From an uncultured archaeon (GTDB taxonomy: Archaea; Asgardarchaeota; Jordiarchaeia; Jordiarchaeales; Jordiarchaeaceae): DNA of 9,727 bases. The notes beneath the pieces are model-generated. The model saw only the letters and a list, made by a program, of their open reading frames with translations. It made no database searches and was not told the DNA's origin. Below, one piece after another: positions 4,287-9,228 of this stretch. Each line of letters begins with the position of its first letter. Positions within the stretch are counted from its first letter, which is position 1. A program made the position numbers and the translations under genes. The stretch spans positions 1 through 9,727 of the forward strand of contig CAZECW010000012.1 in NCBI GenBank assembly GCA_964510585.1, read 5' to 3'.

Positions 4287-4532
4287 ATGAAAGTAAGAAT
4301 GTCGTCAAAAGGTCAAGTGGTTATCCCTAAGGAGATTAGAGAGAAGCTTGGTATTAAGCCAGGAACAATTCTGAATATTAAGGCTGGAGATAAAAAAGTT
4401 ATACTTGAGTTGGCTCCAGAACCACCAGACGTGTTCGTAGAGGTTGGTGAGGTTGCAGAGAAAATTTTAAGAGAAGCAAAGGCGAGTAGCGACAAGGCGG
4501 AGAAACTTTTGAGGGATCTGGGTGTCGGCTAG
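4287..4532 (+). CDS. vapB: AbrB/MazE/SpoVT-family antitoxin
   Basis: Signature MSSKGQVVIPKEIREKLGIKPG. 81 aa. Overlaps the downstream PIN gene by 11 nt. Confidence 0.92.
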   Translation: MKVRMSSKGQVVIPKEIREKLGIKPGTILNIKAGDKKVILELAPEPPDVFVEVGEVAEKILREAKASSDKAEKLLRDLGVG

Positions 4533-4962
4533 AGTTTCAATCGACACCGGCGTATTTATAGACTACATTGACATAAAAAGCTCATTTCATAAACTTGCAC
4601 GAGCTCTTGTTGACTCCCTCAATAGGATGGAGGTATTTTTGCCCGGAGTCATTCTCGCGGAAACATGTTATGTTGCAGCTAGGATTTACAAAACTTTAGG
4701 GTTTAGCAACTTTTTGGAAAAGGCATTAAAAATTGTTGAGTGGCTTAACGGGCATCCGTCAATTCATATTGATCGCAGCTTCAACTTAGATATAGAGGCT
4801 GCAAAAATCAAAACCCAATACAACGTAGCCTTAACTGACTGCTACCTGTTAGCAATATCAAAAATTAGGAATAGCACTGTTGTATTCAGGAAGAGAGAAA
4901 AAGAGATGCCACTCCATTTGGAAAAAGATTTCAAGATTCTATTCTTGGAAGATTATGCGTAG
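4522..4962 (+). CDS. vapC: PIN-domain ribonuclease toxin
   Basis: Acidic PIN residues in IDTGVF, LAETCY and ALTDCYLLA. 146 aa. GTG start coupled to the antitoxin gene. Confidence 0.9.
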   Translation: MSARVSIDTGVFIDYIDIKSSFHKLARALVDSLNRMEVFLPGVILAETCYVAARIYKTLGFSNFLEKALKIVEWLNGHPSIHIDRSFNLDIEAAKIKTQYNVALTDCYLLAISKIRNSTVVFRKREKEMPLHLEKDFKILFLEDYA

Positions 4963-8538: not shown

Positions 8539-8685
8539 TCCTCCTACTTTTCAATTAATTGATATGTCATCTCTTCTTATTTTAAAAGTTTATGAAATCT
8601 CCCTGCGGAATACTTGGATTCACCATAAGCCTCTGCTTACAGTTTTTTACCAATTTTCCCCTTTCTTGAAGGAGTTTACAAAACC

Positions 8686-8730
8686 TTGGCGAGAAAGCCC
8701 CCGACTTAAGTCGTGGGGATGAATCGCCAA
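8686..8730 (+). repeat. Left-end imperfect palindrome of the IS200/IS605 element
   Basis: TTGGCGA (8686-8692) and TCGCCAA (8724-8730) close an outer stem around the 8-bp inner hairpin at 8698-8718. Confidence 0.85.
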
Positions 8731-8760
8731 AAAGCTTATTTGAAAGTAGAGTATATAAAT
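8729..8760 (+). promoter_or_regulatory. Element-internal archaeal promoter
   Basis: AAAAAGCTTATTTG (8729-8742) and GAAAGTAGAG-TATATAAA (TATA at 8752-8759) are both BRE/TATA-like. They point into the structured segment, with an expected TSS at about 8765-8785. Confidence 0.6.
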
Positions 8761-8789
8761 AGTTGTTGGTAGCTGAAGGGTTTGGCTTG

Positions 8790-8975
8790 GGCTTAAGGGG
8801 CTAAACAAGACGCAGCCCCCATGAGGGTGCCAACATAGACGCCGTTCCCCTTGAGGGAAGGGCGTGTTAACCGGGTGATGGCACACCCGTTGCCTCGAAG
8901 GCTCCCGACGAGCCAGAAGCAAGAATCTCCCGACTTTAGTCGCGGAGAGTGTCAAATGGATCAGGGTTACACAGT
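8790..8975 (+). ncRNA. Putative stand-alone TnpB omega-RNA (reRNA/sotRNA): scaffold to 8955, guide from 8956 onward
   Basis: Consecutive hairpins at 8797-8819, 8839-8865, 8872-8889, 8900-8914 and 8926-8948. The loop/stem sequence TGGCAC (8879-8884) can pair with GTGTCA (8949-8954) next to the right end, giving a pseudoknot-like contact. The segment also reads as a TnpB-type C-terminal tail (MAHP...QESPDFSRGECQ). The 5' and 3' limits are estimates. Confidence 0.65.
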
Positions 8976-9228
8976 TTTCAGGTGGAGACCGGCCGAATCC
9001 AAGTTACTTTCTGCCCTGAAAAGTTTCAGGGTAGAGTGGGGTGAAAAGGAGCTAATCTATGAGGAGGGATGTATCTCTCTCACAACACAGAGCTTGGAGG
9101 AGTCACTCAGTATAGCGGAAAAAGTGGCGGAGATCGTCGGACTACGGATACCCCAGACACCTGTACCCCGACAATTGGAAATATACAAGTGGAGAGACAT
9201 AGAGGGTCAGGAGGTAATCATCAAGTGA
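8956..9228 (+). CDS. Hypothetical protein (90 aa); host gene at the insertion site
   Basis: MDQGYTVFRWRPAESK...EGQEVIIK. The ATG directly abuts the element's TCAA end. The original SD (GAAGGAG, 8668-8674) lies on the other side of the insertion. The stop overlaps the next start (GTGA). Confidence 0.75.
   Translation: MDQGYTVFRWRPAESKLLSALKSFRVEWGEKELIYEEGCISLTTQSLEESLSIAEKVAEIVGLRIPQTPVPRQLEIYKWRDIEGQEVIIK

Follow-up and report, generated by a model that had tools for sequence, protein, structure and literature searches.

IS608 of Helicobacter pylori inserts 3' of TTAC, carries subterminal imperfect hairpins, has a right end (RE) that terminates in TCAA, and generates no target duplication. 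In ISDra2 the TAM is TTGAT. In a model attributed to the Meers and Karvelis groups, TnpA is said to excise the element without a scar, after which TnpB with a flank guide reportedly recognizes the restored joint of TTAC and flank, and the break is repaired from the element-bearing sister chromosome (TnpB retention or homing). In the ISDra2 omega-RNA, a pseudoknot links tail positions -5 to -3 to a segment further upstream (Nakagawa et al. 2023, PMC10097598), and PATEs "often encode omega-RNAs" on which TnpB must act in trans (Meers et al. 2023, PMC10055086).

Here we describe a 276-bp protein-less element within a 9,727-nt stretch of Asgard archaeal DNA (referred to here as the window). From its sequence, it is probably a nonautonomous IS200/IS605 element of the PATE/MITE kind, with IS608-like TTAC and TCAA motifs, that has kept an omega-RNA scaffold and would depend on TnpA and TnpB supplied in trans. 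PATEs encoding omega-RNAs used in trans are already published (PMC10055086), and the present case is an Asgard archaeal member. It stands out by its copy number, the TATA-like box before the scaffold, and the rearranged-RuvC clade of its candidate partner proteins, as well as by a precise deletion from the right end to a TTAC, both alleles of which are present in one population. In the literature searched, we found no description of omega-RNA mini-elements in Asgard archaea or of adjacent deletions made by TnpA.

Organization of the element and its host

Reading through the window, combined with BLAST searches of its own assembly, delimits a 276-bp element with IS200/IS605 ends at positions 8680 to 8955, lying directly 3' of TTTAC (8675-8679) and closing with GTGTCAA (Table 1). 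A first-pass annotation had described a guide RNA cassette here, with a TATA-like box, stacked stems, and a TCAA end, all of which are present where it placed them. Its right border at 8955 stands, but the true start lies ~100 nt further upstream, at 8680, because the left-end hairpin belongs to the element. The spacer with the TATATAAA box is A/T-rich, and the stems that follow, ~175 nt in all, are G+C-rich. As had also been noted, no TnpB is encoded: the 276 bp contain neither a tnpA nor a tnpB ORF, and neither of the two ORFs touching the element (8647-8955, minus strand; 8851-9228, plus strand) matches a Pfam family. Searching the whole window against Rfam (evalue mode) gives no match in the element, the sole match being a chance miRNA-like one at 232-304.

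The host assignment agrees with a thiolase encoded in the window, which has 96% protein identity to Candidatus Jordarchaeia / Freyarchaeota MAGs (Asgard archaea), and matching DNA occurs in hot-spring metagenomes. Elsewhere in the window (4287-4962), an 81-aa ORF overlaps the 5' end of a 146-aa PIN-domain gene, and the two are probably a VapBC-type toxin-antitoxin pair.

Table 1. Features of the 276-bp element and its flanks (window coordinates), with variability among the 29 complete copies
Feature	Positions	Strand	Evidence or remark	Deviations per column, 29 copies
TTAC insertion target, also predicted TAM of partner TnpB (TTTAC here)	8676..8679	+	TTAC precedes 27/29 complete copies	
Left end (LE), with bulged hairpin 8698-8718	8680..8739	+	92-96% identity to LEs of full-length tnpA-tnpB elements	1.13
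Spacer with TATA-like boxes	8740..8771	+	TTATTTGA at 8737-8744, TATATAAA at 8752-8759	1.40 (most variable segment)
Degenerate tnpB 3' coding remnant (RuvC-III region, out of frame, 5-nt indel)	8772..8837	+	Aligns to tnpB 3' ends on C8, C45, C54, C152	0.48
Scaffold stem A, two-tier hairpin (outer ACGCC/GGCGU, inner UUCCC/GGGAA)	8839..8865	+	Same hairpin, with other sequences, in relatives	
Scaffold stem B, 6 bp, with 6-nt loop AUGGCA at 8878-8883	8872..8889	+	Both-side changes in 4/6 pairs, 15 sequences	
Scaffold stem C, shortened here	8890..8922	+	Longer variable domain in relatives, closed by GCUUCU.../...AGAAGC	
RE hairpin: TnpA recognition hairpin and last scaffold stem	8927..8947	+	Elements within and outside the genus share it at 84-100% identity	
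Tail GUGUCAA	8949..8955	+	Pseudoknot between UGUCA (8950-8954) and loop UGGCA (8879-8883); right cleavage motif TCAA at 8952-8955	
Putative guide in the flank, ATGGATCAGGGTTACACAGT	8956..8975	+	Identical 20-mer after TTTAC at C154:2124-2143	
Codons 112-201, the 3' part of a conserved gene with no known function	8956..9228	+	Relatives and C154 read through the site	
Pseudoknot columns				0.10
Paired scaffold positions				0.50
Unpaired scaffold positions				1.31

Copy number, target sites, and genome fragmentation

The assembly containing the window (3.78 Mb, 217 contigs) carries 29 complete copies by BLAST (89-96% identity, median 94.8%), as well as 51 left halves and 39 right halves that all stop at contig ends, and the genome has in total roughly 70-80 copies of this 276-base protein-less element. 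TTAC lies directly before 27 of the complete copies, in 15 of them as TTTAC, and this observed target equals the TAM predicted by the first-pass annotation. Every complete copy (29/29) terminates in GTGTCAA, none of the 29 is flanked by a target-site duplication, and their flanks are unrelated to one another. In contigs of four hot-spring metagenomes, depth over 8670-8965 is ~30 to 800 times that of the flanks, depending on the bin, and contigs break at 8674-8676 and 8955-8958. Such borders, target motif, and depth pattern typify IS608-type elements of the IS200/IS605 family.

About a fifth of the contig ends in the MAG (~90 of 434) fall inside the 276-bp element, typically ~140 nt in, which largely explains why the MAG is fragmented; the element is one main cause of this fragmentation and of the missing full-length IS copies. 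The complete 276-bp unit is found in this genome only, and relatives share just the first ~55 and last ~41 nt, which are the ends of the transposon. We note that a 1.9-kb contig from a different phylum (JBMFMY010000207.1, locus L040, labelled as a Methanomethylicaceae MAG) carries a tnpB 3' end and RE at 37-220, the last 41 nt of which match the Asgard element exactly; this match indicates that the element spread horizontally or that the contig was mis-binned.

Parent elements and candidate partner proteins

Pfam searches of the genome identify Y1 transposase genes (PF01797, Y1_Tnp) on contigs C169, C7, and C162. In each case the gene follows immediately after a left end sharing 92-96% identity with element positions 1-60, and the TnpA of C169 gives a full match to Y1_Tnp (E = 9e-35). 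The left end of the mini-element aligns to these three contigs and to C15, where a Y1 tnpA gene likewise follows directly. TnpB matches (PF07282, PF01385) include, among others, a complete 424-aa protein on C81 and a C-terminal fragment at the start of C8. On C169, C7, and C162 the contig stops within tnpB, leaving the N-terminal part, and the C7 copy is frameshifted. In this MAG assembly the cognate tnpB is represented by N-terminal and C-terminal fragments with no full-length gene, and a search for exact contig-end overlaps from which a full-length element could be rebuilt found none. A genome of the same genus has a degenerate full-length copy at 78% identity.

At the other end, the 3' ~185 nt of the mini-element align to the tnpB 3' coding end and RE on C8, C45, C54, C152, and C81, and the last ~36-42 nt of the RE share 93-97% identity with the ends that follow tnpB on the same five contigs. 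The region 8772-8955 abuts the transposon boundary, and ten homologous scaffolds lie behind tnpB coding sequence, the location at which an omega-RNA is encoded. It had been proposed that a deletion removed the protein and kept the RNA scaffold, and this agrees with what we find, in that both genes are lost and ~185 nt of tnpB 3' end and RE are retained. The guide RNA reading also hinged on the genome containing further copies and a TnpB with matching ends, and both are found: the 29 complete copies, and TnpA and TnpB genes whose ends match those of the element. The features by which a nonautonomous IS200/IS605 member is recognized, namely, subterminal hairpins, target and cleavage motifs, and a Y1 TnpA encoded elsewhere, are all present.

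One TnpB locus has an unusual organization. At C81:5075-6787 (L071), a degenerate tnpA remnant and the complete 424-aa tnpB share one stop-free 571-codon frame that runs through the RE to a TGA just outside the element, and the left-end hairpin there is unlike that of the 276-bp mini-element.

The candidate partner proteins lack the canonical RuvC D-E-D triad. Alignment of the TnpB genes on L071, L055, and L081 to solved Cas12f/TnpB-like chains assigns a Gly in place of the RuvC-II Glu (IVVGNL, IVLGRL), with the RuvC-I and RuvC-III Asp residues kept. Large TnpB clades with the same Glu-to-Gly change have been described, in which a relocated Glu is predicted to keep activity (Altae-Tran et al., PMC10691335), and the substitution argues neither for nor against nuclease activity.

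A conserved scaffold with a pseudoknot

The single-sequence fold of 8770-8975 is modestly more stable than those of shuffled sequences (z = -2.0), and the case for structure beyond chance rests on repetition and comparison rather than on this fold. Folding sequences one at a time recovers the same four-part layout, with different sequences, in eight diverged relatives. Stem A occurs there as GUGCC/GGCAC, UCCC/GGGA, GGCUU/AAGCC, and GGCUC/GAGCC variants, where the outer helix of the present copy is ACGCC/GGCGU; stem B has 6 bp and an (A/G)UGGCA loop, stem C varies in length, and the RE hairpin comes last, followed by the tail. Among the elements of relatives, the RE hairpin shows compensatory variants, with GAC/GUC replaced by GGC/GCC. 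The degenerate tnpB remnant at 8772-8837, which varies little among the 29 copies, would supply the putative RNA with its 5' portion.

We counted compensatory changes in a MAFFT alignment of 15 diverged relatives comprising two rows from 276-bp mini-elements, the 326-bp mini-element described below, two sequences with incomplete upstream coding sequence, and ten that lie behind tnpB; the four-stem layout, built from differing sequences, recurs in these 15 elements. The formal count covers stem B and the pseudoknot, stem A and the RE hairpin being inconsistently aligned by MAFFT in distant relatives; stem A and stem D were judged by per-sequence folds. Pairing holds in 96.4% of the cells of stem B and the pseudoknot, and five pairs differ on both sides. 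No shuffle out of 500 scored as high as the real alignment on paired cells, on pairs or cells altered on both sides, or on covariation; for the number of further pair types, 124 of the 500 did. Slid controls are just 30-50% paired. Between the loop and tail positions -6 to -2, all 75 cells of the 15 sequences are paired. One relative with loop GUGGUG and tail ACGUCAA has A-U replaced by G-C and C-G by U.G, and in three relatives with UGACA the G.U pair of the pseudoknot is replaced by A-U. The pseudoknot-like pairing reported by the first-pass annotation is real and is kept in tnpB-linked relatives with one compensatory change, and the covariation that it had suggested looking for across copies is found among the diverged relatives in stem B and the pseudoknot, with no shuffle equalling the covariation score. 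The conserved structure includes a pseudoknot whose tail bases lie immediately 5' of the guide position, as is characteristic of omega-RNAs.

The 29 copies of the 276-bp family vary in a related pattern (Table 1), in that paired scaffold columns carry 2.6-fold fewer substitutions than unpaired ones and the pseudoknot has almost none, and we regard the low variability of paired columns as suggestive, since these copies are young (~5% diverged) and not independent. The copy in the window has a private C-G pair at 8872/8889, where the family consensus is U-A, and, at 8894 in stem C, a C.A mismatch. The same layout, with all stems paired, recurs in a second mini-element family, 326 bp long, which has four copies with 81-91% identity (C107:6908-7233 [L072], C58, C21, and C32), each ordered as left end, GTATATT box, full scaffold with a long stem C, and right end.

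These observations bear on the simplest alternative, in which the element is a passive remnant: a PATE mobilized by TnpA, with a tnpB-derived interior that has no RNA function and an apparent conservation that reflects a young burst of copies. In its favor, the copies differ by just ~5% and fall into subfamilies, so that conservation within the family has little power, the TATA box varies freely among copies, and the fold z-score is just -2.0. Nonetheless, we consider this explanation unlikely. As generally understood for IS608, TnpA needs mainly the subterminal hairpins, yet two independent families (276 and 326 bp) keep the whole ~140- to 190-nt scaffold with every stem paired; the rarity of substitutions in paired columns and in the pseudoknot, together with the compensated 8872C/8889G pair in this very copy, also speaks against it. 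The reading as a mini-element bearing a guide RNA is well supported by the tnpB 3'-end homology, the kept stems and pseudoknot, and the TnpA and TnpB genes with matching ends.

The TATA-like box

The TATA-like box TATATAAA is preceded by a purine-rich stretch and oriented toward the RE. It is retained in 16 of the 29 complete copies and altered in 13. The full-length element has GTATATTGATAG at the corresponding place, 29 nt before the tnpA ATG, and GTATATAAATAG in the spacer resembles it, so the mini-element may have fused the tnpA promoter region to the guide RNA region. By this resemblance, spacer 8740-8771 possibly descends from the tnpA promoter, and the box is a putative promoter. The upstream regions of five tRNAs (identified with aragorn without intron mode) yielded no clear motif from which a local promoter consensus could be drawn.

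The box could also be viewed as a mobile promoter that reads outward, its main effect being read-through into the DNA past the RE, which here is a truncated ORF. Its orientation toward the right end fits this view, and the ATG at 8956 could start a 90-aa product. However, ~175 nt of strongly structured RNA would precede that ORF, in the flanks listed, the copies are not placed or oriented in any consistent way with respect to downstream starts, and the box is not conserved among copies, and we judge such a role to be very unlikely.

A precise deletion adjacent to the right end

The sequence immediately after the last base of the element begins ATGGATCAGG, and the first-pass annotation read this flank as a guide programmed against the start of a host gene. 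This part of its interpretation does not hold. The ATG at 8956 encodes an internal Met: in two related MAGs, as well as on contig C154 of the same MAG, it is codon 112 of a gene of ~201 codons, and the 5' part of that gene has been lost from the window in a 1,985-bp deletion. Across the site, the relatives and C154 encode K-A-(T/I/V)-Y followed by (M/I)-D-Q-G-Y-T-V-F, and the guide matches codons 112-118. The truncated gene (8956-9228) belongs to no Pfam family.

In the two related MAGs, the points that flank the element here are separated by ~2 kb containing a MazE/AbrB-like gene, a SAM methyltransferase gene, and the first ~111 codons of the third gene. One related MAG has an empty site, with CTTAC followed by ATGGATCAGGGTTATACAG; in the related MAG QZM_A3, CTTAC is followed by a 19/20 guide match. 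The undeleted allele is on C154 (locus L092; 2,321 nt). The initial 138 nt of this contig match window 8818-8955 at 100% identity, the bases private to this copy (8889G, 8894C, and 8909C) among them; positions 139-2123 are the 1,985 bp missing from the window; and then comes TTTAC followed by ATGGATCAGGGTTACACAGT, a 20/20 guide match, after which the gene continues at 98% identity. The deletion therefore runs exactly from the right end of the element, after TCAA, to the far side of the downstream TTTAC, and it took out the MazE/AbrB-like gene, the SAM methyltransferase with Cys-rich motifs, and the 5' 55% (111 codons) of the third gene. Since C154 and the related MAGs hold the undeleted ~2-kb arrangement at this site, the window is the deletion allele. 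The right flank is syntenic with a relative up to the end of the window, and independent metagenome contigs contain the junction of the right end with ATGG. The possibility that the window contig (C12) is chimeric, joining distant loci, was considered and rejected, both flanks being syntenic with relatives.

The empty allele that the first-pass annotation had predicted, TTTAC followed by ATGGATCAGG, is present on C154 of the same MAG, and a related species has the CTTAC form. Its proposal that the occupied locus is protected likewise fits the sequence, in that GTCAA rather than TTAC precedes the protospacer and the occupied site would for this reason not be a target. The putative guide is simply whatever DNA flanks the right end; because the RE was joined to this site by the 1,985-bp deletion, the guide would be a by-product of position and not a program against the gene.

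The same evidence makes a TldR-like role, in which a trans-acting guide would regulate or target the neighboring host gene at its start codon, extremely improbable. The ATG does abut the RE and is in frame with the ORF to 9228, but it lies mid-gene in both related MAGs and on C154, and the 29 copies have 29 unrelated flanks. Moreover, the locus is a strain-level deletion allele rather than a conserved regulatory arrangement, and the element is mobile and present in ~70-80 copies. A fixed conserved locus with a guide matching a host promoter or gene start, as for TldR, is not what is found here.

Two routes to the deletion can be envisaged. It may have arisen in a one-step TnpA reaction joining the end after TCAA to the far side of TTAC, and it also fits recombination between two copies, the second having been inserted at that TTAC. 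The identity of the retained element copy mildly favors the one-step reaction. No allele with elements at both the left and right sites is present in this assembly, though the population may still contain one, and no precise-excision joint (8679 joined to 8956) occurs among the metagenome contigs, which drop rare variants. A more elaborate scenario would have the elements form a selfish "guide-only" family that carries its own archaeal promoter and lives on the TnpA and TnpB of a few full-length elements, with a one-step, right-end-anchored TnpA deletion having both removed host genes and re-aimed the guide here, and we think this combination quite improbable. If it were true and TnpB active, the deletion allele could convert the intact allele in cells holding both, because the new guide matches the undeleted allele perfectly (TTTAC plus 20/20).

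Discussion

We propose that an internal deletion of a full-length tnpA-tnpB element removed both genes, and that the product kept the left end, the TATA-like spacer, and the last ~185 nt of the parent, i.e., the tnpB 3' end and RE. From the ends, target, partners, and scaffold established at the DNA level, we infer a series of steps at the RNA and protein levels. TnpA from full-length copies would move the mini-element in trans as single-stranded DNA. Transcription would start near 8780 from the element's own TATA-like box and continue through the RE into the flank, and the flank-carrying RNA would load TnpB made elsewhere. After excision, the TnpB-RNA complex would cut the restored joint of TTAC and flank, and the copy would as a result be restored from the sister chromosome.

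If the elements are expressed, an Asgard archaeon would make dozens of distinct TnpB guide RNAs from protein-free cassettes, each of which would guard its own insertion site, and this would be a natural high-copy case of guide and nuclease encoded apart. Such separation of guide and nuclease is the step later formalised by CRISPR arrays, here in the archaeal lineage nearest the eukaryotes. The family also offers TTAC as a defined TAM, together with a scaffold and a small TnpB clade as candidate partner, and the C12 and C154 alleles are a natural nontarget/target pair. The main value of the locus is as a well-documented archaeal case of a concept that is already published.

Comparison with IS608 places the element among nonautonomous relatives of that type. 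The motif pattern of IS608 is verified here on 29 copies, but IS608 carries tnpA and tnpB and the present element neither, and there is no detectable sequence similarity beyond the motifs. In their RuvC motifs, with the Gly and the kept Asp residues, the candidate partner proteins resemble RuvC-II-rearranged TnpB clades such as RIIr-5 (Altae-Tran et al. 2023, PMC10691335).

As in the ISDra2 omega-RNA (PMC10097598), the scaffold overlaps the tnpB 3' end and the RE, the guide is the 3' flank, and the pseudoknot is formed by the last scaffold bases 5' of the guide, positions -6 to -2 being used here. In contrast to ISDra2, the predicted TAM is TTAC, the tail pairs in the pseudoknot with a hairpin loop at a distance of ~70 nt instead of ~100 nt, there is no sequence similarity, and the putative RNA gene stands alone.

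The closest counterparts are the PATE-like elements of Geobacillus stearothermophilus (PMC10055086), which likewise have ends in common with full-length members, contain no protein gene, keep the omega-RNA region, and are expected to use TnpA and TnpB in trans. The present element differs in that its host is an Asgard archaeon, that its copy number is much greater, ~70-80 mini-element copies standing against fragments of a few full-length ones, that a TATA-like box lies directly upstream of the scaffold, and that the candidate partner TnpB has a rearranged RuvC-II.
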